Origin: an uncultured Clostridia bacterium
GTDB taxonomy: Bacteria; Bacillota; Dehalobacteriia; UBA4068
Length of the DNA stretch: 64,000 nt
Assembly (NCBI GenBank): GCA_944393575.1
Contig: CALYAP010000014.1
Coordinates: 2,819 to 66,818 of the forward strand
Reading direction: 5' to 3'
Shown here: one piece after another, positions 4,551 through 16,007 of the stretch
How the letters are laid out: each line of letters begins with the position of its first letter
How positions within the stretch are numbered: the stretch's first letter is position 1
Notes under the pieces: generated by a model
What the model was told of the DNA's origin: nothing
What the model saw: the letters and a program-made list of their open reading frames with translations, nothing else
Databases searched by the model: none
Program-made: the position numbers and the translations under genes

Positions 4551-5091
4551 TAATAATGCCCCTTTCCTGGAGGTCTTTTCGTAGTTTGAGCTTGCTTTGG
4601 TAAAGCCGGTTGCTGATTTGTTTTTCATTCATCTGTAAGTGTGCTGCAATGTCCCGTACTGATTCTAAAAGATAATGCCTTCTAACGAATATTTCCCGGT
4701 CTGGCTCTGGTAGAAGATTGACTGCTTGTTGTAATATGTCGCTATCTTCTTGTGCCAACAAATATTCGACTATATCATGTTGGTCATAAAGCAATTCATC
4801 GTTCAAGGGAACCATATTGCTCCGTGACAGTTGTTGGAGACGGTTGATTGCCTGATGACGGGCGGTAACGATCAGTAAGCCTTTGAGCGAGCCCCGCTTA
4901 GGATTCAGCTTGGAGGCATTTTTCCAGATCTTGATAAAGGTATCGGCAATAGCCTCCTCAATATCCTCCGGATGGCCTGCTAGAACATTGGCACAAATTT
5001 TACCAACAAGCCCACGATAGGCACTGATCAGTTGATGCAGTCCTTCCTGTGGCGTTCTTTTTAATAATTTGATAATGGCGATATCGTCCAT
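4543..5091 (-). CDS. ECF (sigma-70 family) RNA polymerase sigma factor
   Basis: Region 2/4 ECF architecture; translationally coupled to the downstream anti-sigma gene; likely start at the ATGATG after an AAGGAGGA RBS. Confidence 0.85.
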   Translation of the reverse strand: MDDIAIIKLLKRTPQEGLHQLISAYRGLVGKICANVLAGHPEDIEEAIADTFIKIWKNASKLNPKRGSLKGLLIVTARHQAINRLQQLSRSNMVPLNDELLYDQHDIVEYLLAQEDSDILQQAVNLLPEPDREIFVRRHYLLESVRDIAAHLQMNEKQISNRLYQSKLKLRKDLQERGIINE

Positions 5092-5243
5092 CATATCCTC
5101 CTTGGCCAAGGAAAATATCTTTCACTTATATATACAGGTATAAGCACGTTTTTTCTTAAACGTATTTGCCAAAATGACTTGAAATTCATCCTTCAGCATA
5201 ACAACCCTTAAACTACTAATCAAATGAACAGTAGGCAAACAAA

Positions 5244-5269
5244 AACTCCCCTGTTATAACAGGGGAGTT
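5244..5269. terminator. bidirectional terminator hairpin (aactcccctg...caggggagtt)
   Basis: Perfect 10-12 bp palindrome with T-runs on both strands; ends the minus-strand small-gene pair. Confidence 0.65.
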
Positions 5270-5326
5270 TGTTGGTTATAGCACATCTTGATGTTTGTTG
5301 AAAACTTCAACTATATCACGGCGGCA

Positions 5327-5497
5327 TCAGGTGCCTTTGGGATTTTTGTTTTTGCAGTCGCAATGGGTCATCGCCCCAGTAGCTGCAATCACTTTATCTA
5401 CAGTATCAGCTCCTGCACGCATAGCGGCAACAATATCGTCTTCAGTAACCTCATCGCAATAGCATATATATTTGGGCGATGTAGTCTCAGATACCAT
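5327..5497 (-). CDS. BFD-like [2Fe-2S]-binding mini-protein (56 aa), missed by the 60-aa ORF cutoff
   Basis: My translation is MVSETTSPKYICYCDEVTEDDIVAAMRAGADTVDKVIAATGAMTHCDCKNKNPKGT, with CxC...CxC like the Bfd-like ORF at 18039; GGAG 3 nt upstream of the ATG. Confidence 0.6.
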   Translation of the reverse strand: MVSETTSPKYICYCDEVTEDDIVAAMRAGADTVDKVIAATGAMTHCDCKNKNPKGT

Positions 5498-5526
5498 TTG
5501 CTCCACGACCTTTCATTATGATATTT

Positions 5527-5754
5527 TTATAACAATACCGAGGACGTGTATTCGACTTTGATGTCATTATCTTTGGTACGTGCTAATTTGGCCTTATTGC
5601 CTCTACCATCTTCTAATGTCATTTTTTCTAGCTTATAGGTATTAAAAAAGTTGACTACCTCAGACTCGATAAAAGCAGACCAGTTTTTTACTTGAACCTT
5701 CTCTGGTTCCAAGGCTTCCTCAAGAGTTTGAGGATTAGTAGCATATTGACTCAT
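5527..5754 (-). CDS. hypothetical 75-aa protein, probably co-transcribed with the Bfd-like mini-protein
   Basis: Strong RBS GGAGGGA 5 nt upstream of the ATG; no recognisable domain. Confidence 0.5.
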   Translation of the reverse strand: MSQYATNPQTLEEALEPEKVQVKNWSAFIESEVVNFFNTYKLEKMTLEDGRGNKAKLARTKDNDIKVEYTSSVLL

Positions 5755-5962
5755 TTGGCTCCCTCCATCAAATATGGTTAATAAAATAACTGTTTGCCCT
5801 AGGGCATAAACCAGTATAGCATAAACCAGAAATGGAAGTAAAGCTGAAAAAAGTATCTGCTAATTTATGACAATGCTCTATGGGATTCAGCTAATTGTTG
5901 TTGTTAAATCCCCTTTGTTCTGGGCATAATAAGCTGAGGTATAATTGAAGGAGGAATCATAG

Positions 5963-6121
5963 ATGAGGAGATACCAAAGCTTATTTAATAACTATATGGC
6001 TGTAGTTAATATGATCCTTAGTGAGGGAAGAAAAGGATGCGGTAGGCAATGCCCTTATTGTGGTAGCTTAAGTGAAAATGATTTTGAATTTTGCCATCGC
6101 TGTGGAAAAAGAATTTCCTAA
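5963..6121 (+). CDS. 52-aa zinc-ribbon mini-protein (CPYCGS...CHRCG), missed by the ORF cutoff
   Basis: Excellent RBS GAAGGAGGA with 7-nt spacer; CxxC-N13-CxxC; lies just upstream of the dinB promoter. Confidence 0.5.
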   Translation: MRRYQSLFNNYMAVVNMILSEGRKGCGRQCPYCGSLSENDFEFCHRCGKRIS

Positions 6122-6140
6122 ATTTAGTAATTATTAGCCC

Positions 6141-6169
6141 TTGACTAGAACGTATGTTCGAGTTATGAT
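6141..6169 (+). promoter_or_regulatory. sigma-A promoter (TTGACT-17-TATGAT) with an embedded LexA/Cheo box AGAACGTATGTTCG
   Basis: -35 at 6141-6146, GAAC-N4-GTTC at 6148-6159, -10 at 6164-6169. The track ORF 6141 starts inside the -35, so that start is an artefact. Confidence 0.75.
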
Positions 6170-6221
6170 GATTATAGGTATTGGCAATTATCGTTTTTAT
6201 TGGTGGAGGGCTGATCTACGG

Positions 6222-7508
6222 TTGGAAAATATTATTTGCCATATTGATGTTAATAGCGCTTTTCTTTCTTGGACCGCAGTAGATCGGCTGCATAGATTAC
6301 CTGATTCTATCGATATCAGAGAGACTCCTGCGGTGATCGGTGGAGACCAGCAAACGCGGCGTGGTATTGTTCTGGCTAGCAGTATTGTGGCCAAATCCTA
6401 TGGAGTTAAAACTGGCGAACCACTTTTTCAAGCATTACATAAATGCCCGCATTTAGCTATTTATGCCCCTGACTATGAGCTCTATGTGCATTGTTCTGCC
6501 CGATTAATGGATTTACTGCAGAAGGTAGCGCCAGTTGTCGAGCAGTATTCCATTGATGAGGCTTGGATCGATTTGACTGGTACTGATAAATTATATGGGG
6601 ATCCGGTACGTGTCGCTACACTGCTGAAAGACCGTATCCGCGATGAATTGGGCTTTACTGTCAATATTGGTATCTCGACTAATAAACTGTTAGCTAAGAT
6701 GGCCAGCGATTTTCTGAAACCAGACCGTGTTCATACTTTATTCCCGGATGAATTAGCTGCAAAATTATGGCCCTTGCCAGTAGGCAAGCTGTTTTTTGTC
6801 GGTCCGGCTACAGAGAAAAAATTGCTTGCTATGGGTATTTTAACCATCGGTGACTTGGCGAAAGCTGATGTTCGTCATTTACGCTCACGCCTGCATAAGC
6901 ATGGCGAGATCATTTGGCATTATGCTAATGGCCGCTGTTTTGATGTGGTAGCTAGTCAAGCTTCCTTGAATAAAGGGTATGGTAATTCTACCACCACTGC
7001 TTTGGATATTATCGATATTACCGCTGCCCATAAGGTATTGCTATCACTGAGCGAGACTGTGGGGGCCAGAATGCGACGGGACAACCAGTATGGTTCTTGT
7101 TTGACGCTTCACTTGCGTAGTAGCCAATTTCACGACTTTTCTCATCAATTGCAATTAGCCTATCCAACTAATTTGACCTTAGAGATATATCAGGCCGCCT
7201 GCTTGGCCTTGAATCAATTATGGGATAAGCATACGCCTTTGAGACAGCTGGGTATTTATATGAGTAAGGTCGATCATTATGGTATAAGACAAGGTAGCTT
7301 ATTTACTGATGATAATTATACTAAATTATCGCAAGTCGATAAAACCGTAGATAAAATAAGGGAAAAGTTTGGCAGCGATGCTATTTTCCGGGCCTGTTTG
7401 GCAGAAAAGAACATTAGGCCAATGAGTGGCGGCCCTCTCTCTGATCCCTTCCGGCAGCGGTCGCGATCTTCTGATAATCGTTCTTTGACTAATGATATTA
7501 AGAAATAA
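6222..7508 (+). CDS. dinB: DNA polymerase IV (Y-family translesion polymerase)
   Basis: MENIICHIDVNSAF aligns with MxKIIHVDMDxFF; fingers/palm/little-finger order. I chose the TTG at 6222 as the start. Confidence 0.9.
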   Translation: MENIICHIDVNSAFLSWTAVDRLHRLPDSIDIRETPAVIGGDQQTRRGIVLASSIVAKSYGVKTGEPLFQALHKCPHLAIYAPDYELYVHCSARLMDLLQKVAPVVEQYSIDEAWIDLTGTDKLYGDPVRVATLLKDRIRDELGFTVNIGISTNKLLAKMASDFLKPDRVHTLFPDELAAKLWPLPVGKLFFVGPATEKKLLAMGILTIGDLAKADVRHLRSRLHKHGEIIWHYANGRCFDVVASQASLNKGYGNSTTTALDIIDITAAHKVLLSLSETVGARMRRDNQYGSCLTLHLRSSQFHDFSHQLQLAYPTNLTLEIYQAACLALNQLWDKHTPLRQLGIYMSKVDHYGIRQGSLFTDDNYTKLSQVDKTVDKIREKFGSDAIFRACLAEKNIRPMSGGPLSDPFRQRSRSSDNRSLTNDIKK

Positions 7509-7820
7509 TTGAGCAAAGACGAAAAAAGACAGCTGTTAAGGCACCATCCGTAAGAAAGGTGCACTAAGACTTTTGTATATCAAATTAAAATTGTTGTGTT
7601 TTACCGGTGTAGCCTTTGGTTATGCCGTTTTTTCTTTGCTGCGTTCCAGTTCCGCTAAATGCTCTTGGAGTGATTCTTCCATTTCGAGTTTTCTTTCCTA
7701 TTCAGTTGTTGCTCTCTAAAAAGAGTATTTTATGTCCTACCAGATCAGAGATTATTTGTCAAGTTGCGTATAGACAGGCAAAAGTAAGGGCATACTAAAT
7801 AATTTTCCCTTCCGTAAATC

Positions 7821-7844
7821 GTGATATATTGCTATATAGATCAC
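7821..7844. promoter_or_regulatory. inverted repeat GTGAT-N14-ATCAC with internal palindrome CTATATAG; candidate operator upstream of the flavodoxin-fold operon
   Basis: Seen in sequence; ~270 bp upstream of 8115. Confidence 0.3.
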
Positions 7845-8114
7845 AATTTGTTTTATTCTCATAATATCCTCTCAACAATCCCTATTCCCTGTCGCATAAA
7901 GCGTCATACATACTTTTTACACATATTTAACCGAAAGCGGGTAGTTGCTTTATGCTGCACATTATATAATCAAAATGGAATATTGTCTTTGTGATAAGTT
8001 AAAATGCGAGACGCTTTTGGGGCCTTTTCATCACAAACGTTTCGACAAACCAGACCGCTATGTTTTCGGTAAGAATGGCGTTAAAAAGTTATTTTAAAAG
8101 GAGAAGCTGGTATA

Positions 8115-8611
8115 TGAAGGTGATAATCCACGATCTTAGAGAAGGGGAGGCTCTTTTTCTGGGAAAATCGGATAAGGATTCGGTTGTCATTCATGCGAAC
8201 AATCAGTATGCTCCCTGCTGTGGCTGTTTTAAGTGTTGGCTGAAGAACGCCGGTTTTTGCATAATGAAGGATTCTTTGCAGCACATTGGAGCGCTCATTG
8301 GCCAGAGTGATCCGCTGATCATCGTCAGCCAGTGCTGTTATGGTGGGTATAGCAGCCCTGTCAAGGCTATCTTGGATCGTGCGATTGGGGAGTCTCTCCC
8401 GTTTTTTACCTGGCGGGGCGGGCAAACTCACCACATTAGCCGTTATCCCCATCGGAAGTTGCTGCGTGTTTATTTTTATGGGGAATGCACGAAATTTGAA
8501 GAGGAGATAGCCAAAGAGGTTGTCGAGCGCAACCGTCTGAATCTGGATTATGAGGAAGCGGATGTGGTTTTCTTCAAAAATATCGAACAGATAAAGGAGG
8601 CCAGCTTATGA
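8115..8611 (+). CDS. Isf-like flavodoxin-fold protein with compact Cys motif (CCGCFKCx7C) but lacking the N-terminal FMN phosphate-binding loop
   Basis: APCCGCFKCWLKNAGFC followed by DPLIIVSQCCYGGYSSPVKAILDRAIG resembles the Isf / NADPH-dependent FMN reductase fold. RBS AAAGGAGAAG 7 nt upstream; ATGA overlap with the next gene. Confidence 0.55.
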
Positions 8612-9351
8612 ATCTTCTAATCTTGAATGCAAGTCCCAAGAAAAAGGGTGGCGCCTCCCGATTTTTCTCGGGTTTATTCCGGCTGTTTCTGCCGGGCATC
8701 CGAAAAAAAGTGGTATCCCTTAGCTGTCAACAAGATTTTCAGCGAGTACTGGAACTATTGCCCGGCATGGATGTGGTATGCCTTTTCGTCCCTCTTTATG
8801 TAGATGGCCTTCCGTCCCATATAGTGGAATTTCTCATCCAAGCGGAGGGATACTGTAAAAATCATCCTTGCCAGTTCCGATTGTATGTACTTGCCAATAA
8901 CGGTTTTGTCGAAGGAAAACAAAATCGACCCGCTCTAAATATGCTTCAGGCGTGGTGTGAAAGGGCAGAAATCACTTGGGGTGGCGGAATCGGAATTGGC
9001 GGCGGGGTGATGCTCCAGGTATTGGGGATCATTTACCCCATCCTGATTGGAATCATCCTGTTGCAAATGGCGTTATCCCTTTGCAGCATCGGCACCATTT
9101 CAGGCGAATTATGGCGTTCTTTCGTCATCCAGATGTTAACATGGCTTTTTCTCAATAGCGGCATGTTGTGGTGTATGGCACGTCTTTCGTCAGCTATCCG
9201 TAGGGAGCGAGTATTGCCCAACCAATTTACGCGGGTCATGATACCCTCTTGGCTGTTTATCCCCATCGCGGACGTATTTATGATTTTATCTTCTCTCTTT
9301 CAAGGCCGCTTTCTTTTCGCACTTTTGCAGCAGGACAAATGGCATAGTTAA
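8608..9351 (+). CDS. NAD(P)H-dependent FMN reductase-like flavodoxin-fold domain fused to a C-terminal multi-TM membrane anchor
   Basis: LILNASPKKKGGASRFF phosphate-loop-like N-terminus and VVCLFVPLYVDGLPSHIVEFL; C-terminal ~100 aa form hydrophobic helices. Confidence 0.55.
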   Translation: MNLLILNASPKKKGGASRFFSGLFRLFLPGIRKKVVSLSCQQDFQRVLELLPGMDVVCLFVPLYVDGLPSHIVEFLIQAEGYCKNHPCQFRLYVLANNGFVEGKQNRPALNMLQAWCERAEITWGGGIGIGGGVMLQVLGIIYPILIGIILLQMALSLCSIGTISGELWRSFVIQMLTWLFLNSGMLWCMARLSSAIRRERVLPNQFTRVMIPSWLFIPIADVFMILSSLFQGRFLFALLQQDKWHS

Positions 9352-9364
9352 TAGGAGGATAGTT

Positions 9365-9910
9365 ATGGAGCATATCATTGTCTACGGCAGCCATTATGGA
9401 AGCACCCGCCGATATGCGGAAAAACTGTCTGAACAAACCGATATTCCGGCGGTTAGTTATAAACAAATGCCAGATCTTTCCGATATAAAAACTATTATCT
9501 ATTTGGGTGGATTGTATGCTGGCGGCGTCCTGGGATTGGCAAAAACCTTGCGGGGCCTCTCCTTGCATGGGGGACAAACGTTGATCATCGTCACAGTGGG
9601 TTTGGCTGACCCCAAAGAACCGGAAAATCGAGAAAATATTCGAGTATCTCTTCAAAGACGGCTTCCGACAGAACTGTTTTGTCGGACGAAAATTTTTCAT
9701 CTTCGAGGGGGTATTGATTACCAGAACCTGAACGTCGGACACCGCACGATAATGGCATTACTGTACCAGTCTGTTTGCAAGACGTCTTGTGAAAAGCAAA
9801 CCGCAGAGAATCGGGCATTTATAGAAACTTATGGAAAACAGGTGGATTTTACAGATTTCCGTGCGTTGCAACCGATTATTGAGGAAATACAGGGGAAACG
9901 ATATGAATAA
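9365..9910 (+). CDS. flavodoxin-domain protein (HemG-like / Flavodoxin_5-type)
   Basis: MEHIIVYGSHYGSTRRYAEKL and IIYLGGLYAGG pattern matches the long-chain flavodoxin/HemG-like family; RBS TAGGAGGA. Confidence 0.6.
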   Translation: MEHIIVYGSHYGSTRRYAEKLSEQTDIPAVSYKQMPDLSDIKTIIYLGGLYAGGVLGLAKTLRGLSLHGGQTLIIVTVGLADPKEPENRENIRVSLQRRLPTELFCRTKIFHLRGGIDYQNLNVGHRTIMALLYQSVCKTSCEKQTAENRAFIETYGKQVDFTDFRALQPIIEEIQGKRYE

Positions 9911-10712
9911 AACCTTTAAAAATATACTGAAAATCCTTCTAATCGGTCTTATCACCACTATCGTCCGCATCATCGGGCAACTTTCTATCCCAGCTGGCGA
10001 GCAGACAGTTCTGGAGCCTAGTGTTTTCGCACAAAACGGTACCATGCCACTGGCTTTTACTGTCTATGGGATTTTCGCTTACTCACTGATTGCTTCGTTG
10101 TTCCTGCTCATCCGGAACCGGTTGGGCGGAAAGCTGATTTTACAGGGTCTGAAATACGGCCTTTCCTGCTGTGTTGTGTGGATTGTTTATCTTTTAGAAC
10201 CTTTACCCCATGTAGCGGTCATTGATCGGATTACTTACCCAGTGGCTGATAGCTTGGCTTTGATTGTTATGGGTTTGCTGCTTGGATGGCTATTTGGAAA
10301 ACCCAAATATTCAGCAGGCCTGCAGAAAACTGCATTTCCTGTCCTTCCAGTGCTGACCGTGACTGCCTGCTTCTTCGCCGGGCGGATGATACAATATTTT
10401 ATCTTTGGCATTTACTCTTCTTTTGATGAGAAACCATTGGAAACGGTACTGTGGTGTCTGTTGACAGGTCTTGCAATCTCCTGTGTGATGTCATGGCTGA
10501 ATCTTTATATTAGCAACGGAAATAGGGTAAAGAGGGCAATGATTTTGGGCTGCCTTTTGTTTGGGGTGGATTTGATTCTCTTCAATTTCTTTATGCCATT
10601 AGTGTTTGATGCAGACATCTCCGATCTGATCCTCCGAAGCTTAATCGACATCCTGGCAGTGACTCTCGGATGTCTGTCATTCTCGAATAAGCGTAATGCC
10701 GTTGAGCTGTAA
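9903..10712 (+). CDS. uncharacterised polytopic membrane protein (~7 TM)
   Basis: ATGA overlap with the upstream flavodoxin gene; hydrophobic throughout; no family recognised. Confidence 0.5.
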   Translation: MNKTFKNILKILLIGLITTIVRIIGQLSIPAGEQTVLEPSVFAQNGTMPLAFTVYGIFAYSLIASLFLLIRNRLGGKLILQGLKYGLSCCVVWIVYLLEPLPHVAVIDRITYPVADSLALIVMGLLLGWLFGKPKYSAGLQKTAFPVLPVLTVTACFFAGRMIQYFIFGIYSSFDEKPLETVLWCLLTGLAISCVMSWLNLYISNGNRVKRAMILGCLLFGVDLILFNFFMPLVFDADISDLILRSLIDILAVTLGCLSFSNKRNAVEL

Positions 10713-10726
10713 GGAAGGGGAACTGG

Positions 10727-11917
10727 ATGCAGGAAAAACGAAGTATTCGCTTTGGGAAATGGGTGCTTAAGGTTGTGGTATCTTATGCGGTGTTTATTAT
10801 CATCGGCCTGCTATTCTCCCTTGTCCCGGCCAGTCGTCTTGGATTGTCTGAAGAAATGTTTTTCAACCTTCGGATGTTTTTCATGCTCTTTGGCCCGATC
10901 TATCTCACCCTGATCGTCAAAATTATTTTGACCTTTATTCCTGCCATAAAAAAGCAGACAAAAGATATCGCCGAAAAAAGCAGGGGAGTTTTGTTTACCA
11001 TCACGGCACTGCTGCTATTTGCTAACCTATCCAATGCGCAGACGGTCTCCGACTTTACAACTGGATATGTCCAGGGCAAAGGATTGCGGAATCTGGAAAA
11101 AAGTAAACGGTATTCCCTGAAAGGCAAGCGTTTTCTAAATGTCTTTCTGCCGGTGGGGTTCTATTTGCTGGTTTTAGAACTGTTGACGCTCATCGTCTGT
11201 ATTGTCGTTTTTGCACCTCTTTCACAGATTGCCAGCCATGCCTTTATTCTTACCATTGCTTTGACCGCCTTGCTGTTGCTTTTGATTCCGCTTATCCTAT
11301 CCTTAATTTCTGGTTATCAGGGAGACAAGGCCGTATATAAAGAAAGGCTCGCACAGGAAAAGCAAGCTGCTGTCCAGTCAGATGTCCGGGTGCTGGAAAC
11401 CGACCCAGTTTGCCGGAAGCGGTATCTCCTGCTGCCAAAAATATTGACACTGTTAGTTTGTCCTGGCGTTTGCTTGATTTCTGGACTTGTACTTTCTCTT
11501 ACCAAGAACGCTCAGGATCTTTTGACCGTCCAGCTATTGAGGAGGCCATTTTTGGTGTTGATGGCTGTCGCCGTTTTCTCCTTTATCCCTCTGCTGATGT
11601 ATTGGGTCAACTGCTCCGGAACATCCTTGGTACAGCGGGTTTATCTTGAACAGAACCAGCTGTATTATACCGGTTACAGTGGCAGCATGGAGGAACGTAG
11701 GGAATTCACCTTTACACTGCTTCAACTGGAGAGCTATCGTGTTGGGAAAAGAGCCATCCGCATCCGAGGGCAGTTTACCAAAAAGACAAAGGATTCTTAC
11801 GCTACCAATAAAAAAGGCCCGTTCACCAAAACATTGTGGCTCCCTCGAACCTTCACGTTGGAACAGGAACAGGCCCTGTTGCAATTTTTACATGATAAAG
11901 CAGCTCATGTTCATTGA
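10727..11917 (+). CDS. uncharacterised membrane protein with N-terminal TM bundle and C-terminal soluble (possibly bacterial PH-like) domain
   Basis: RBS GGAAGGGGAA; multiple TM segments; C-terminal 90 aa are hydrophilic and K/R-rich. Confidence 0.5.
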   Translation: MQEKRSIRFGKWVLKVVVSYAVFIIIGLLFSLVPASRLGLSEEMFFNLRMFFMLFGPIYLTLIVKIILTFIPAIKKQTKDIAEKSRGVLFTITALLLFANLSNAQTVSDFTTGYVQGKGLRNLEKSKRYSLKGKRFLNVFLPVGFYLLVLELLTLIVCIVVFAPLSQIASHAFILTIALTALLLLLIPLILSLISGYQGDKAVYKERLAQEKQAAVQSDVRVLETDPVCRKRYLLLPKILTLLVCPGVCLISGLVLSLTKNAQDLLTVQLLRRPFLVLMAVAVFSFIPLLMYWVNCSGTSLVQRVYLEQNQLYYTGYSGSMEERREFTFTLLQLESYRVGKRAIRIRGQFTKKTKDSYATNKKGPFTKTLWLPRTFTLEQEQALLQFLHDKAAHVH

Positions 11918-12076
11918 CCGTTTTTTACTAGCTATACAAGAAATAAAGGCATAACGACACATAAAAAAGCAATCACTGTGCTGGAAGGCATACATTTCTT
12001 TACTAATTTAATGGATAAATTTTGATGATATTTTATTGTTTCCGACGTATTTCATGAATAGGAGGTGAGTTTGATG

Positions 12077-12253
12077 TACAAAACGGTGGTTGTCAAATAT
12101 TCTCCTAAGGCAAAGGAAATGGCCGTCAGAGTAGAGGAAACGGCCAACAAAATGGAACAGGACGGGTTTGAACTGGTTTCCTGCTCTATCACACCTTCTT
12201 CCAAAGGAATCCTGGTATTCAAAAAATCTGGTGAACTGGCGCTAGAAAAATGA
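12077..12253 (+). CDS. DUF4177-like mini-protein (58 aa)
   Basis: RBS AGGAGGTGA; MYKTVVVKY...DGFELVSCS...ILVFKK pattern recalled for DUF4177. Confidence 0.45.
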   Translation, partial: YKTVVVKYSPKAKEMAVRVEETANKMEQDGFELVSCSITPSSKGILVFKKSGELALEK

Positions 12254-12270
12254 GTCTTTCTTGTCGCAAA

Positions 12271-12315
12271 GAAAAAAGCACTTAGAAGCGAATGGTTCTA
12301 AGTGCTTTTGTTTTT
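12271..12315. terminator. bidirectional rho-independent terminator
   Basis: A6-agcacttagaa-loop-ttctaagtgct-T9. Confidence 0.8.
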
Positions 12316-13217
12316 ATGGTATTCAGAGCAGCGTCTTGTTTGGCCTTTGCCTTTTCTAAATCCTCAAAATCTCCTAAGTCGGTCAGTTGAACTTCCGATG
12401 CGTCTACAGTGAGCAGCACAAGCTGTCACAGCCTTATTTTTATAGCCGATTTTTATTTTCAGAAGCGGTAACCAAAAAATGCTGCTGCCATACATTGTTT
12501 CGTAGCTGATTCAGCTTTTCTCATTGGTCAGTTCTTCAACTTTTTGGATAATATTATAAACATGGCTTCTTCTCGGAGACACAGAAAGATATAAAAACCG
12601 GTCTTTGTCAGCAGTACATACGCTTTACGGATGTGAATATCAATCCCACCAGCCGGAGCAGATATTCATCGAGAATCAGGAATAGACACAATAGAGAAAA
12701 GGGCAAATAAACTATTTGGTTTGTCCGCTCTATATATTTGATTGAGAAATAGTACTATACATCTATATTGACAGCGGTAGAACTGGGTTTCAGGTTGATT
12801 TCTGAGCGCTATGAGTTGATCTCAGAGAGCTCTGAGCACAGTAGCGTGATCCACGCCAGCAACAAGTATTTCAGCCACTGGAGCGAGCCGCTCAGTGACA
12901 ATATACTGAGCCCTGAGCTCCAGGATAGTCTGCTTTTCCATGCTCATGTAGTGAAGCATTTATCGGTTGTGGAACCGTGTTAAGGCCAGTGCCCAGACGG
13001 TTCTGCCGACCAAAATTCTAGCAGCTGGCTGACTGGATGCTAGATTTGCGACGTTGCCAAGTGTTGTTTTGATTCCGGCGGTTGGGGTATCTTCTACATG
13101 GTATTTGAAGCTTTTTCATTCCAGCGTTGGCAATAGAAAGAGTAAACCCACTCACCCCATTTGGGTGGGTATGCGTGAGTGGGAAGATAAAAACAAAATA
13201 TTGCATCATAGAAAACA

Positions 13218-13257
13218 AGACGGGCAGAGTTTGAAAACTCTACCCGTCTTTATTATC
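13218..13257 (+). terminator. rho-independent terminator ending an unannotated, apparently non-coding, plus-strand transcript
   Basis: agacgggcagagtt / aactctacccgtct stem followed by TTTATTAT. Confidence 0.55.
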
Positions 13258-13384
13258 GGTAATTCTCCAATATGATTGCTTTTCCTATAAAACCAATTAT
13301 TCCGGCTGATTCCAAAAGCCGAAAAGAGAAAGCTTCCTTGCAAAGTGTCTCCCGTAAAGGCTGTCTTTTTTGCTTTTCCCCGGG

Positions 13385-13414
13385 GTATAAATGTTTGGGT
13401 TTACGGTAATAATT
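13385..13414 (+). promoter_or_regulatory. forespore sigma-F/sigma-G-type promoter for sigG (GTATA-15-GGTAATAATT)
   Basis: -35 GTATA 13385-13389, 15-nt spacer, -10 GGTAATAATT matches GGnnAnAnTn. Confidence 0.65.
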
Positions 13415-13448
13415 GATTCATAAGCGCCAACTCCGAGGAGTGAATAGC

Positions 13449-14219
13449 TTGCTTAATAAAGTGGAGATCTGCGGTGTTAATACCGCTAAGTTGCCAGTAT
13501 TACCAAATGACAGAATAAATGAATTGTTTGTAGAGATGCAAAAGGGGAATAGAGAGGCCCGGGAGGAGCTGATTGCCGGCAACCTTCGTCTGGTTTTGAG
13601 CGTTATCCAAAGGTTTAATAATAGAGGTGAAAATGCCGATGACCTTTTTCAGGTTGGCTGCATTGGTTTGATAAAAGCAATCGATAATTTTGATCTAAGC
13701 CAAGGCGTACGCCTTTCTACCTACGCTGTGCCGATGATCATTGGTGAGATCCGCCGCTATTTGCGTGATAATAATGCGATTCGTGTTTCCCGCTCTATGC
13801 GTGATATCGCCTACCGTGCGCTCCAGGCCAGAGACGCTTTTGTCAATGAGCATGGTAAGGAACCAACGATCGATGAAATAGCTAAAAAAATAGATTTGCC
13901 GCGCGAAGATGTTATTTTTGCTTTGGACGCAATAGCTGACCCGATATCCTTATTTGAGCCTATCAGCAATGAGAGTGGCGACCCAGTATACATGATGGAT
14001 ATGGTTGGCGATGAAAAATATGGCGAAAAGACCTGGCTGGAATCCCTGAATATCCGGGAAGGATTGTCCAAATTAGGCGAACGGGAGAAAAAGATTATCA
14101 ATCTACGCTTTTTTGTCGGCAAAACGCAGATGGAAGTGGCAGAAGAGATCGGTATTTCTCAGGCGCAGGTGTCACGCTTGGAAAAAGGCGCTTTGATGCA
14201 GCTGCGTAAGTATATTTAA
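13449..14219 (+). CDS. sigG: sporulation sigma factor sigma-G
   Basis: Near-identity over long stretches to B. subtilis SigG as recalled (NKVEICGV, GNLRLVLSVIQRFNNRGE, FQVGCIGL, MIIGEIRRYLRDNN, QMEVAEEIGISQAQVSRLEK). TTG start after a GAGGAG RBS; the track start at 13413 is too long. Confidence 0.93.
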   Translation: MLNKVEICGVNTAKLPVLPNDRINELFVEMQKGNREAREELIAGNLRLVLSVIQRFNNRGENADDLFQVGCIGLIKAIDNFDLSQGVRLSTYAVPMIIGEIRRYLRDNNAIRVSRSMRDIAYRALQARDAFVNEHGKEPTIDEIAKKIDLPREDVIFALDAIADPISLFEPISNESGDPVYMMDMVGDEKYGEKTWLESLNIREGLSKLGEREKKIINLRFFVGKTQMEVAEEIGISQAQVSRLEKGALMQLRKYI

Positions 14220-14319
14220 GCGATGCGGAAATTATTGAAGAAAATTTGCAGTTCTATTTATGAATTCATTTTTTTGCGTGGTTATTTAGAACACGAACAG
14301 CAAGAAGGAGATAAAATAG

Positions 14320-14928
14320 ATGACCAAAACAAAAGTATTTAAGTGGTTAGCGGTAGCTTTGATAATTTTACTCTCGGCCTTATCTTTTTATATTTTTGGT
14401 GATGATAGCCAGGTATTATTTGCTAATGCCAGCGCCAACGAGAAGCCGTTGCGTCTTCATGTTTTAGCTAATAGTGATAGCACAGAAGATCAACAGTTAA
14501 AGCTGCAAGTAAGGGATTTTATTATTACTTTATTAAAGCCGCAGTTAGCTGATATTGAGAATAAAGAAGCAGCTATGAATCTGATTGAGGCAAATATTCC
14601 TCAGTTGACTGAGGCCTGTAATGCGTTCTTGAACGGTAAGGCTGATTATCAGGCTACTTTAGCTCTAGAGAGGGCGGATTTTCCTGAGATAAATTATGAT
14701 GGAATGGTTTTTGCCTCGGGGGAATATGATGCTCTGCGAATCATTCTTGGCGAAGGGGAAGGAAAGAATTGGTGGTGTGTGCTTTTTCCACCGCTATGCT
14801 TTGTTGATCTAGCTTCTGAATATGATCCTGATTTGGCTTTAAGCGTTTGGTCTTCTTATACGGGAGAGCAATCAGATAATGGCGTGCAGATCAAATGGAA
14901 GCTCTCCGAATTGTTTGGCGGCAAATAG
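14320..14928 (+). CDS. spoIIR: stage II sporulation protein R
   Basis: Signal/TM N-terminus, RLHVLANSDS motif, CVLFPPLCF. Confidence 0.85.
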   Translation: MTKTKVFKWLAVALIILLSALSFYIFGDDSQVLFANASANEKPLRLHVLANSDSTEDQQLKLQVRDFIITLLKPQLADIENKEAAMNLIEANIPQLTEACNAFLNGKADYQATLALERADFPEINYDGMVFASGEYDALRIILGEGEGKNWWCVLFPPLCFVDLASEYDPDLALSVWSSYTGEQSDNGVQIKWKLSELFGGK

Positions 14929-14935
14929 TAGTCTT

Positions 14936-15274
14936 TTATAATTCCCATTCCTCCCAGTCATATTCTTTATGTTTGGCAGGTTCGATATCCTGTACTCTGG
15001 TATCGACAATATCTGTTACAATCGGCTTTGAGCGTTCATCTCCAATCAGGATGACGTCAAGGCCGATTTTTTTGATTTTATCCCAGGGAATGATAGTCTC
15101 TTCGCTGCGCACGAAAAAGCCTAAAAAACGGCTTTCACCAGGGATAATAACCGCATCGATAGAACCAGCATTGATATCTATTTCGATATCATAAACATAT
15201 CCTAGTTTTTTCCCATCTATTTCATTGATCACATCTTTGCGACGAAGTTCGGAAATAAGGAACATCTTTATCAC
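14936..15274 (-). CDS. PRC-barrel sporulation protein, YlmC/YmxH family
   Basis: ~110 aa, KIGLDVILIGD PRC-barrel signature, located between spoIIR and nrdR. Confidence 0.8.
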   Translation of the reverse strand: MIKMFLISELRRKDVINEIDGKKLGYVYDIEIDINAGSIDAVIIPGESRFLGFFVRSEETIIPWDKIKKIGLDVILIGDERSKPIVTDIVDTRVQDIEPAKHKEYDWEEWEL

Positions 15275-15469
15275 CTCTTAGCTTTTATATATGCGAATAA
15301 TTGCGGTATCATACCCTAAAACAGTAATTGATAGGAGAATAATTAAAACATATTTATTTCTTAAAAAAGCTTGCAATGCTTTATCTGGTGTTTTATAATA
15401 AAAAATATACTAGATGAAGTATAGCTTGAGCATTAATCTAATCATATATCTACGGTTAGGGGGATATTT

Positions 15470-15949
15470 ATGAGATGCGTTTTTTGTGGACATGAGGACT
15501 CTAAGGTTCTGGATTCCCGTCCGGTAGAAGAAGGTCGGAGCATTCGCCGCCGCAGAGAGTGCCTGGCTTGCGGTAAAAGATTTACTACCTATGAAAGGGT
15601 AGAGGAGCTGCCGCTGATCGTTGTCAAGTCCGATAACCGCCGAGAAATGTTTGATGCTAATAAAATTTTGAACGGTTTGATCAAGGCTTGTGATAAACGA
15701 AGTGTCCCTATCACTGTGCTGGAATCGATCGTTAATGATATTGAAAGAGAGCTGCGCAATAACCTAGAACGTGAGGTTTCTTCCAAGGAGATCGGCGAAC
15801 TAGTAATGGCTCATTTGCGTGGCGTTGATCAGGTAGCGTATGTTCGTTTTGCCAGTGTTTATCGTAAGTTTGAAGATGTCTCTACCTTTATAGACGAAAT
15901 CAAAGCGCTGCAAAAGGAACTGCAGACCACTAAAGCAGAAAATAATTAG
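15470..15949 (+). CDS. nrdR: transcriptional repressor NrdR
   Basis: MRCVFCGHEDSKVLDSR...CLACGKRFTTYE zinc ribbon plus ATP-cone. Confidence 0.95.
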   Translation: MRCVFCGHEDSKVLDSRPVEEGRSIRRRRECLACGKRFTTYERVEELPLIVVKSDNRREMFDANKILNGLIKACDKRSVPITVLESIVNDIERELRNNLEREVSSKEIGELVMAHLRGVDQVAYVRFASVYRKFEDVSTFIDEIKALQKELQTTKAENN

Positions 15950-15972
15950 ACCTTTGTTAATATTATTTTAGC

Positions 15973-16007
15973 AACGCTTCTTGACTGCCAAGAAGCGTTT
16001 TATTTCT
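15973..16007 (+). terminator. rho-independent terminator after nrdR
   Basis: aacgcttctt-gactgcc-aagaagcgtt-TTATTTCT. Confidence 0.8.

Follow-up and report, generated by a model that had tools for sequence, protein, structure and literature searches.

A probable mobile-element relic with an intact modular cargo operon between dinB and sigG of an uncultured Clostridia bacterium

The window, the whole stretch of 64,000 nucleotides that we analyzed, contains a 5.8-kb segment in which neighboring genes and mobility genes have decayed to fragments and one operon of six genes, G1 to G6, has stayed intact under purifying selection. We read this segment as the relic of a mobile element whose modular cargo operon encodes a membrane flavin-dependent redox or detoxification trait, and we assign this reading as a whole a probability of roughly 0.5. 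That the segment is a relic and that its cargo is modular is very probable; the biochemical mechanism is put forward tentatively.

Insertion into the dinB terminator and relics of the element

The operon is flanked by dinB and sigG, where the preliminary description had placed it, with sigG-spoIIR directly downstream. A related metagenome contig, L043 (dinB 78% and sigG 95% identical in amino acid sequence), provides the empty counterpart of this site. There, dinB, one intact hairpin, and sigG are contiguous; L043 positions 1526-1563 align to window positions 7502-7539, and L043 positions 1566-1802 align to window positions 13360-13596. Because the arms of this hairpin are 5.8 kb apart in the window and contiguous in L043, the DNA from about 7540 to 13359 is a 5.8-kb insertion.

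7522-7541, + strand: dinB terminator hairpin, left arm, forming inverted repeat I2 with 13352-13371; left junction at about 7539/7540
7540-13359 (approximate), no strand: inserted segment, mobile-element relic plus cargo operon, 5.8 kb, wholly absent from L043
13352-13371, + strand: dinB terminator hairpin, right arm; right junction at about 13360

An occupied site in the window and an empty one in L043 are what is expected of an integrated element. The segment was acquired horizontally, its point of entry being the dinB terminator loop just upstream of the sigG promoter region. With a GC content of 0.452, the operon exceeds the remainder of the window (0.424; highest value of any 5.8-kb interval there, 0.444). 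It had been suggested that the operon was inserted here or had replaced spoIIGA-sigE. The empty site bears out insertion and not replacement: dinB lies next to sigG in L043, so spoIIGA-sigE was not displaced here.

The DNA to the right of the operon had been taken to be non-coding. It holds relics of three genes together with DNA from the relaxase side of the element.

12309-12407, - strand: CotH kinase relic, last 33 codons (tblastn, 76% identity to residues 447-479 of L016 CotH, E 5e-10)
12484-12644, - strand: PadR-family regulator relic, frameshifted (residues 20-73 of L016 PadR in two frames, E 3e-10)
12768-12983, + strand: IS21-family IstB relic (PF01695, 33.8 bits, cut-off 24.1, E 3.3e-8, profile positions 176-224 of 238)
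13215-13353, no strand: relaxase (MobA/MobL)-PadR intergenic relics (82-86% DNA identity to L016 positions 12724-12774 and 13150-13233)

The CotH stretch matches nine other loci, the PadR protein of L016 belongs to PF03551, the IstB relic is 32% identical to the intact IstB protein of L038, and a hairpin (13217-13250) lies within the relaxase-PadR intergenic relic. The flanks are decayed mobile-element DNA rather than plain spacer. Inside the segment, no intact recombinase, transposase, or relaxase gene was found, only relics; given the IstB fragment, the earlier statement that no transposase is present is true only for intact genes.

Intact mobility genes accompany the operon elsewhere. In L016, it lies beside a MobA/MobL relaxase, a DUF5906 primase, and large serine recombinases, and this locus thereby unites the serine recombinase, relaxase, and primase of the integrative mobilisable elements of Firmicutes. 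The window differs from such elements in having no intact mobility gene, and its ends are definable only as two junctions. A Resolvase/Recombinase gene and TnpW are found at L007, and ICE-like genes at L008.

Related operons often lie near a relaxase, a serine recombinase, and a sigI/RsgI-VTC-DUF4956-CotH cluster; at nine loci, sigI-like, RsgI, RsgI-PepSY, VTC, DUF4956, and CotH genes are oriented divergently or convergently relative to the operon. The same gene families occur in the sigma factor-VTC-"tubulin-like" (DUF4956)-CotH cluster of Clostridium perfringens NELoc-2 (PMC2879425) and as the cotH, polyphosphate-polymerase, and DUF4956 accessory genes of Gram-positive pel loci (bioRxiv 10.1101/768473). 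As a point of difference, this partner cluster stands outside the window operon and has its own sigma-I-type promoters. Unlike many copies, that of the window has lost the sigI/RsgI cluster.

Layout, modularity, and promoter of the operon

Six open reading frames (ORFs) on the + strand lie between dinB and sigG, preceded by a promoter cassette and followed by a terminator.

7915-7970, + strand: conserved promoter cassette (TTTTAC-N6-TTAAC, about 33 nt, TATAAT)
8114-8611, + strand: G1, 165 aa, soluble, FMN_red-like, CX2CX2CX7C, no N-terminal FMN phosphate loop
8608-9351, + strand: G2, 247 aa, flavodoxin/FMN_red-like N-terminal half (LNASPKKKGGAS loop), hydrophobic C-terminal half with about three transmembrane (TM) segments
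9365-9910, + strand: G3, 181 aa, Flavodoxin_5 (HemG-type) protein
9903-10712, + strand: G4, 269 aa, membrane protein with eight TM helices and no assigned family
10727-11917, + strand: G5, 396 aa, about six TM helices, then a beta-rich C-terminal domain with a helix at its end
12074-12253, + strand: G6, 59 aa, small and soluble, usually but not always 3' of G5
12274-12309, no strand: bidirectional terminator hairpin between G6 and the formerly convergent CotH gene (14-bp stem, T-runs on both strands)

G1 and G2 overlap by an ATGA (-4), G2 and G3 are separated by 13 nt, G3 and G4 overlap by 8 nt, and G4 and G5 are separated by 14 nt. The distance from G5 to G6, which has its own Shine-Dalgarno (SD) motif, is 156 nt, and hence only five genes are translationally packed. 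The preliminary description, in which G1 began at 8115 (corrected here to 8114), had extended the coupling to all six genes and had credited each with a strong SD motif. AAGGAG or AGGAGG motifs do precede G1, G2, G3, and G6; those of G4 and G5 are weaker and G-rich. The terminator predicted at 12271-12315 is present as the hairpin at 12274-12309, which recurs 3' of CotH in L007, L015, and L023. All six ORFs are intact and 99-100% conserved among same-species contigs, their dN/dS values against two diverged copies are 0.08-0.21, and called proteins for all of them exist in public assemblies. They are real genes under purifying selection.

Among 185,579 species genomes, genes of the operon were found in about 30, from gut Clostridia, where they lie on mobile DNA. 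The pattern is patchy, at 53-85% identity, with hosts spread across Oscillospiraceae, Lachnospiraceae, and Christensenellaceae. The genes form a co-oriented, conserved module; the set recurs in other species, and its order is kept in many genera. It is not the one fixed set of six that had been described. All six genes are present in L010, L011/L039, and L016, and G4 is missing from L019, L023, L024, and L034. G3-G4-G5, in some cases with G6, is found in L009, L012, L014, and L017; G3-G4 stands alone in L040 and L127, G1-G2 in L122 and L124, and G5 in L020, L026, and L031. Overall, about one locus in three lacks G4 and most loci lack G1-G2; some variants have two more genes (cl12a/b) ahead of G1. 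G1-G2, G3-G4, and G5 each also occur by themselves, be it in other phyla or in a housekeeping setting, and G1-G2 is still an overlapping pair in as remote a host as a distant Firmicute or a Treponema. G3 adjoins G5 or G4 at 21 loci. G6 lies beside G5 at 60-88% identity in at least 17 loci and is elsewhere or on the opposite strand in L009, L035, and L036. These results show that the operon was assembled from three separately occurring two-gene units, G1-G2, G3-G4, and G5-G6. Because these units can stand apart and are combined in several ways, it is unlikely that the six products are obligate subunits of one complex.

The half-sites of the promoter cassette, TTTTAC and TTAAC, are about 11 bp apart and are accompanied by a poor -35 element and a TATAAT -10 element. 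The window holds one exact copy only. At 17 or more related loci, the cassette precedes the first gene, be it G1, G3, G5, or the extra cl12 genes, and it is also found distally upstream of the sigI-like gene. All versions of the operon are driven by this one conserved cassette. It may be a sigma-A promoter that depends on an activator, conceivably one of the OmpR/PhoP direct-repeat type. Sigma-I promoters have ACCCC or an A-tract at -35 and CGWA at -10 (PMC4711584, PMC10575876). Promoters of this type (ACCCC..CGTA) precede sigI and the RsgI-PepSY/VTC sub-operon at seven loci; none was found upstream of the G operon at any locus or in window positions 7540-8113, and CGWA is not conserved in the operon promoter alignment.

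Properties of the encoded proteins

Searches of Pfam, NCBIfam, PADLOC, PDB sequences, and the literature matched the operon to no described pathway, in agreement with the initial impression that it could not be mapped to a described system. Models of anti-phage defence in PADLOC gave zero matches at E<=1 for all six proteins.

Three products had been described as having a flavodoxin fold. Of these, G3 alone passes a flavodoxin HMM; it matches Flavodoxin_5 (PF12724) at E 8.7e-16 and 59 bits (cut-off, 27) over profile positions 1-136 of 145. The FMN phosphate-binding loop of flavodoxins is N-terminal and of the S/T-x-x-G-x-T type, and the G3 loop Y-G-S-x-Y-G-S-(T/A)-R-R-Y, conserved in 11 homologs, is predicted to be such a loop. 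With its near-whole-profile match and its 181 aa, G3 falls in the same length class as the HemG-type long-chain flavodoxins; HemG hands electrons to membrane quinones. G3 differs from HemG in having no heme-pathway context and in being translationally coupled to the eight-TM protein G4 or adjoining G5.

For G1, the match to FMN_red (PF03358) is below threshold (21.9 bits; cut-off, 24) and covers profile positions 48-96 only, spanning the P-x-Y-x-G-x-S..LDR region. Its cysteines, C35-x2-C38-x2-C41-x7-C49, conform to the compact CX2CX2CX4-7C motif of iron-sulfur flavoproteins (Isf); C35, C38, and C49 show no variation, and 7 of 8 homologs have C41. The intact FMN-binding flavodoxin core of Isf is lacking: the N-terminus (MKVIIHDLREGE...) has no S/T-rich phosphate loop, and the same is true of all homologs.

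The G2 protein of the window has zero Pfam matches. Among its 846 homologs, those at 43-56% identity carry PF03358 or the name "multimeric flavodoxin WrbA"; the PF03358 carriers (precomputed table) are full-length, and the match is faint in L122. On this basis, G2 is probably a member of a membrane-anchored FMN_red-like family, its TM segments being estimated by hydropathy analysis. PF03358 in distant members of the G2 family and the cysteine motif of G1 recall WrbA (COG0655) and Isf. As differences, G1 is without the N-terminal FMN phosphate loop, both proteins are under the Pfam threshold, and G2 has a C-terminal multi-TM anchor that soluble WrbA and Isf lack. Profile-profile comparison detected no relationship between any of G1, G2, and G3, and G1 and G2 have no solved structural relatives.

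G4 and G5 had been called membrane proteins without a family, and so they remain. The match of G4 to DUF6789 is below the Pfam threshold (15.2 bits; cut-off, 27.1). It has eight predicted helices with short loops, and its model, of medium confidence (pLDDT 67.6), shows a weak resemblance to the RND superfamily (MmpL, SecDF, HpnN, Patched/NPC1) at the level of the fold only, with 7-11% identity, no periplasmic or luminal domains, and no HMM link. RND proteins have 12 TM helices in two 6-TM repeats and two large extracytoplasmic loops; with 269 aa, eight helices, and short loops, G4 does not qualify as an RND member.

G5 gave zero Pfam or NCBIfam matches, and 25 distant relatives are likewise without a Pfam family. 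The family is very small, with 112 representatives at E<=1e-3 among 1.84 billion. The G5 model is of low confidence (pLDDT 59; C-terminal domain, 70-86), and fold searches were uninformative. A bacterial PH (bPH) identity for the C-terminal domain found no support (no HMM match; best Foldseek E-value, 0.17); only a strand-strand-...-helix pattern hints at something PH-like. G6, described as a DUF4177-like peptide of 58 aa, has 59 aa and matches no Pfam family at E<=1, DUF4177 included.

Candidate roles of the operon

As a best guess, the products may together confer a flavin-dependent redox or detoxification trait that is associated with the membrane. Putative cytoplasmic flavin/Fe-S proteins (G1, G3, and the N-terminal domain of G2) would dock on the membrane partners G4, G5, and the C-terminal domain of G2, and the docked proteins would reduce or otherwise process a substrate that is lipophilic or located in the envelope. 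Such a trait would be traded among gut Clostridia as accessory cargo. Several neighbors point toward resistance or transport, namely the MATE gene within the operon of L021, TelA, ABC and ABC-F proteins, GNAT acetyltransferases, and a TetR-G4like-ABC arrangement. Neighbors differ from locus to locus, so such associations carry little weight.

Alternatively, G4, perhaps with G5, might do the work of a transport, efflux, or immunity module, with the flavodoxin-fold proteins ancillary or regulatory. KefF and KefG are flavodoxin-fold oxidoreductases that serve as ancillary subunits of the membrane transporters KefC and KefB, and a comparable arrangement may be seen in G1-G2 and G3-G4, where a small cytoplasmic flavodoxin-fold gene lies just upstream of, and overlaps, its membrane partner. 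There is, however, no sequence relationship to the Kef proteins, and neither G4 nor the C-terminal domain of G2 is a CPA2 antiporter. G4-family genes lie by ABC transporters and a TetR regulator in L040 and L125 (a TetR-G4like-ABC arrangement), an ABC-2 transporter gene lies 3' of G5 in L008, and a MATE gene separates G4 from G5 in L021. Against this, ABC neighbors are common everywhere, many operon copies are without G4, and G4, as described above, has neither the RND architecture nor a sequence-level link to that superfamily, its model being of medium confidence only. We regard a transport module as doubtful. In the preliminary description, the operon was proposed to encode a single dedicated complex, embedded in the membrane, for flavin/Fe-S electron transfer or redox sensing. 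Tight packing of G1-G5, the conserved order of the three full sets, the four-cysteine motif of G1, and the flavodoxin-type domains in G3 and the G2 family are consistent with it. A stoichiometric complex with six obligate subunits would be incompatible with the loss of G4 or G1-G2, the solitary occurrence of the units, or the addition of cl12a/b, and a dedicated complex is accordingly unlikely.

The operon could also be the output of the accompanying sigI-like/RsgI system and thus belong to an envelope-stress regulon. Its proximity to the partner cluster at nine loci, the CotH relic directly after G6 in the window, and the cassette shared with the distal sigI promoter would fit this idea, but the sigma-I-type promoters precede sigI and RsgI-PepSY/VTC and not the G operon, CGWA is not conserved, and many copies, including that of the window, are without the sigI cluster; we therefore consider regulon membership quite improbable. 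A sporulation-related function, suggested by sigG and spoIIR directly downstream and by CotH, a spore-coat kinase family, is very improbable: the empty site in L043 makes the position beside sigG an accident of insertion, other copies lie in unrelated contexts, the promoter has a plain TATAAT -10 element, and G1-G2 also occur in Treponema. The clearly decaying surroundings might suggest that the six ORFs are themselves fortuitously juxtaposed or decaying leftovers without current function. That reading has a very low probability and is already largely refuted by their intactness, their conservation among same-species contigs, their low dN/dS values, and the recurrence of their order in many genera.

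Insertion of the operon into the dinB terminator

The six-gene operon G1-G6 was originally described between dinB and sigG as a possible insertion, or a replacement of genes such as spoIIGA-sigE. By scanning metagenome contigs with the dinB protein, we found a relative with an empty site, contig L043 (dinB, 78% amino acid identity; sigG, 95%). In L043, sigG begins approximately 100 nt after dinB, and a single terminator hairpin, AAAAAAGACAGCT-TTTAAC-AGCTGTCTTTTTTT, lies between the two genes. In the window, 5.8 kb separates its two arms (7522-7541 and 13352-13371; inverted repeat I2), and the alignment with L043 covers 7502-7539 and picks up again at 13360. Because the hairpin is whole in L043 and split in the window, positions ~7540-13359 are, on this comparison, an insertion that opened the dinB terminator at its loop. 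Insertion is thus borne out and replacement is not: sigG follows straight after dinB in L043, and nothing was displaced. The same evidence speaks against a sporulation-related function, which we disfavor. At 0.452, the GC content of the operon is slightly higher than elsewhere in the window, where 5.8-kb segments reach at most 0.444.

Genes and terminator of the dinB-sigG interval
6141-7508, dinB, left neighbor
8114-8611, + strand, G1, 165 aa
8608-9351, + strand, G2, 247 aa
9365-9910, + strand, G3, 181 aa
9903-10712, + strand, G4, 269 aa
10727-11917, + strand, G5, 396 aa
12074-12253, + strand, G6, 59 aa
12274-12309, 14-bp hairpin with T-runs on both strands, 3' of G6
13413-14219, sigG, right neighbor

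The junctions from G1 to G6 measure -4, +13, -8, +14, and +156 nt; G1-G5 are therefore tightly packed and G6 stands apart, with a strong Shine-Dalgarno sequence of its own. Translational coupling, proposed for all six genes in the preliminary description, accordingly fits G1-G5 and not G6. Called genes exist for all six proteins in public assemblies, DNA identity over the whole region is 99.2 to 99.7% among six same-species contigs, and dN/dS is 0.08 to 0.21 for every gene when two diverged copies, L010 and L016, are taken as the reference. On these grounds G1-G6 are real, selected genes, and the purifying selection speaks against their dismissal as junk ORFs. With homologs of G5 in ~30 species, the module is also conserved beyond this strain.

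The flanks of the operon, previously taken for plain non-coding DNA, hold gene relics.

Relics in the right flank
12309-12407, - strand, last 33 residues of CotH (76% identity, E = 5e-10)
12484-12644, - strand, frameshifted PadR fragment
12768-12983, + strand, 71-aa ORF, IS21 IstB fragment (PF01695, 33.8 bits, above threshold)
13215-13353, intergenic relic matching L016 DNA between the MobA/MobL relaxase and PadR genes

The IstB fragment has no remnant of IstA beside it. On the left, homology to other copies begins at ~7675 and takes in the promoter cassette, and the 135 nt at the left edge of the insert (7540-7675) match nothing among the loci compared. Two terminator-like hairpins (7605-7627 and 7664-7688) lie near this end. 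An Rfam search of positions 5000-16000 at E ≤ 1 returned no RNA family, riboswitch, or leader in the flanks, only two chance miRNA-like matches. Judged by these alignments, the flanks are the remains of decayed genes rather than spacer. The odd isolation of the operon thus has a well-supported, ordinary explanation: it is cargo that outlasted the mobile element around it, which has decayed. This is mainly what the locus shows at present.

Three side observations concern the neighboring genes. A GTATA-N15-GGTAATAAT motif at 13383-13412, immediately upstream of sigG, resembles sigma-F/G promoters. Only ~25 nt separate it from the insertion junction on its left, and L043 has it too, so the insertion appears just to have spared a putative sigG promoter. 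Upstream of dinB, a 52-aa zinc-ribbon ORF (5963-6121) has weak DUF7575/DUF7577 matches in a precomputed table. Gene callers start dinB 27 nt 3' of the start of the longest ORF (446 versus 455 aa).

Mobile context and modular gene content

G5 has ~200 close homologs without a name or Pfam domain, and at E ≤ 1e-3 a library of 1.84 billion yields only 112 representatives. With each species represented by a single genome, it was present in ~30 of 185,579 species at 53 to 85% identity. The carriers are mostly gut Oscillospiraceae (Faecalibacterium sp. An122, Gemmiger, Intestinimonas, Allofournierella, and Owariibacterium), together with some Lachnospiraceae and one Christensenellaceae. Neighboring genes include DUF2812/PadR, a MobA/MobL relaxase, a DUF5906 primase, and a 646-aa serine recombinase in locus L016, Resolvase/Recombinase and TnpW in L007, and ICE-type genes in L008. 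The patchy spread and these mobility-type neighbors place the operon on mobile DNA.

Gene content of the operon in related loci
G1-G2-G3-G4-G5(-G6): L010, L011, L016
Two extra paralogous single-TM genes plus G1-G2-G3-G5-G6, without G4: L019, L023, L024, L034
G3-G4-G5(-G6): L009, L012, L014, L017, L128
G3-G5-G6: L007, L028
G5 alone, housekeeping genes on either side: L020, L026, L031
G3-G4 alone: Gallibacter L040/L041; L127
G1-G2 alone, overlap retained: a distant Firmicute; Treponema

Given this variation, the six-gene set is a divisible composite of three two-gene units. A single six-subunit complex, as first envisaged, is disfavored, since G1-G2, G3-G4, and G5 each occur alone in some loci. 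Two apparent fusions of G1 and G2 (P0484 and P0488) were rejected as Rosetta-stone evidence: their linkers are out-of-frame translations, and they are therefore assembly or frameshift artifacts. The extra paralogs of the variant without G4 lie between the cassette and G1 (in L023, at 6399-7193 and 7241-8011; also in L013, L019, L024, and L034). Each encodes ~260 aa with one N-terminal TM helix and no Pfam family.

The shared promoter cassette and the sigI cluster of related loci

Upstream of G1, at 7915-7970, lies a cassette composed of TTTTAC-N6-TTAAC, ~33 nt, and TATAAT, the last at 7965-7970. It is conserved before the first operon gene in at least 17 loci, whichever gene leads, and is found distally upstream of the sigI-like gene also. 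Its -35 position is poor (TAGnnG), and its upstream half-sites, ~11 bp apart, resemble the direct-repeat sites of OmpR/PhoP-type activators; the cassette may be a site for such an activator. A sporulation-type reading of the -10 element was dropped because TATAAT alone is conserved there. The 5' untranslated region (7972-8116) has no special structure (fold z-score, 0.02). In L020, a G5 homolog with its own cassette (9910-11167) lies between a Na:alanine symporter gene and murE/priA, and promoter and gene appear to have moved together as a mini-cassette.

In nine loci the operon adjoins a six-gene cluster encoding a sigI-like sigma factor, RsgI, RsgI-PepSY, VTC, DUF4956, and CotH. The cluster, 73 to 96% identical across genera, points away from the first operon gene in some loci and in others faces the operon from beyond G6; the CotH relic in the window is a survivor of this second, convergent arrangement. 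C. perfringens NELoc-2 includes the same gene families, which also accompany Gram-positive pel loci. Promoters matching the sigma-I-type consensus, ACCCCGGTTTT...CGTA (PMC4711584, PMC10575876), precede both the sigI-like gene and the RsgI-PepSY/VTC/DUF4956/CotH suboperon. They are well conserved, with a 15- to 20-nt leader, at 6598-6571 and 4839-4812 on the - strand of L016 and at equivalent sites in L007, L009, L013, L015, L023, and L025. These sites suggest that the cluster, common with NELoc-2, is an autoregulated sigma-I regulon. No promoter of this type was found before the G operon, so sigma-I probably does not control it.

Protein families and possible function

The claim of three flavodoxin-fold proteins stands for G3, which belongs to Flavodoxin_5 (E = 8.7e-16) and whose phosphate loop is intact. 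G1 has an FMN_red match below threshold and a conserved CX2CX2CX7C motif, without a phosphate loop. G2 itself matches no Pfam family. Its family comprises 846 proteins of ~250 aa, the more divergent of which either contain PF03358 or bear the name "multimeric flavodoxin WrbA"; the C-terminal half of G2 is hydrophobic. The G5 model is poor (pLDDT 59), with five to six strands and a helix in the C-terminal 95 residues; stand-alone relatives of ~170 aa match residues 220-394, and no assignment held up under fold and family searches. G6 has no family match, which leaves its "DUF4177-like" label unsupported. Searching PDB sequences, first protein by protein and then with G1-G4 family profiles, gave nothing meaningful, and hhalign, with low-diversity profiles, found no relation among G1, G2, and G3 or between G4 and G5. 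PADLOC gave no anti-phage defense match for the six proteins, and a literature search on Flavodoxin_5 and DUF6789 found nothing relevant.

The evolutionary reading, in which the cargo has stayed intact while its mobile element decayed and is built of modular two-gene units with a shared cassette, is well supported. The module is a real, conserved variant of flavodoxin-fold oxidoreductase cargo, a kind already known on mobile elements, and consists partly of families without any model. The pairing of putative cytoplasmic flavin/Fe-S proteins with membrane partners, and neighbors often of resistance or transport flavor (MATE, ABC, ABC-F, GNAT, TelA, and TetR), suggest a membrane-associated redox or detoxification trait. 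The three units might even constitute an undescribed modular class of "flavodoxin-plus-membrane-partner" devices, to which we assign a probability of about 0.15. Each device would couple a cytoplasmic flavin/Fe-S protein, as power source or gate, to a small dedicated membrane protein (the G2 C-terminal domain, the RND-like G4, or G5), resulting in redox-driven export or reduction of a lipophilic compound across the membrane. Mobile elements would spread the units as promoter-equipped cassettes among gut Clostridia, and a possible benefit is tolerance of redox-active or membrane-active compounds in the animal gut. Alternatively, and this is the main rival, the system could be transporter centered, with G4 as an RND-like module and the flavodoxins as ancillary subunits.

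If the operon is a transferable redox or detoxification trait, dominant gut Clostridia would be exchanging a new accessory function (carriers include Faecalibacterium, Gemmiger, Intestinimonas, and Blautia relatives of chickens and humans), and three families without a Pfam or NCBIfam model (G4, G5, and G6) would gain a function. The shared cassette offers a concrete handle for locating the regulator and inducing signal. As a "dark" accessory trait of gut Clostridia, the module is tractable.

A plasmid collection yielded no DNA match and no G5 protein match, only two remote G4-like matches. On an Aerococcus tenax megaplasmid (L126, 4911-6680), a remote G4-like gene (27% identity) lies directly upstream of ApbE, an FAD:protein FMN transferase gene, an adjacency that could connect the G4 family with extracytoplasmic flavinylation.
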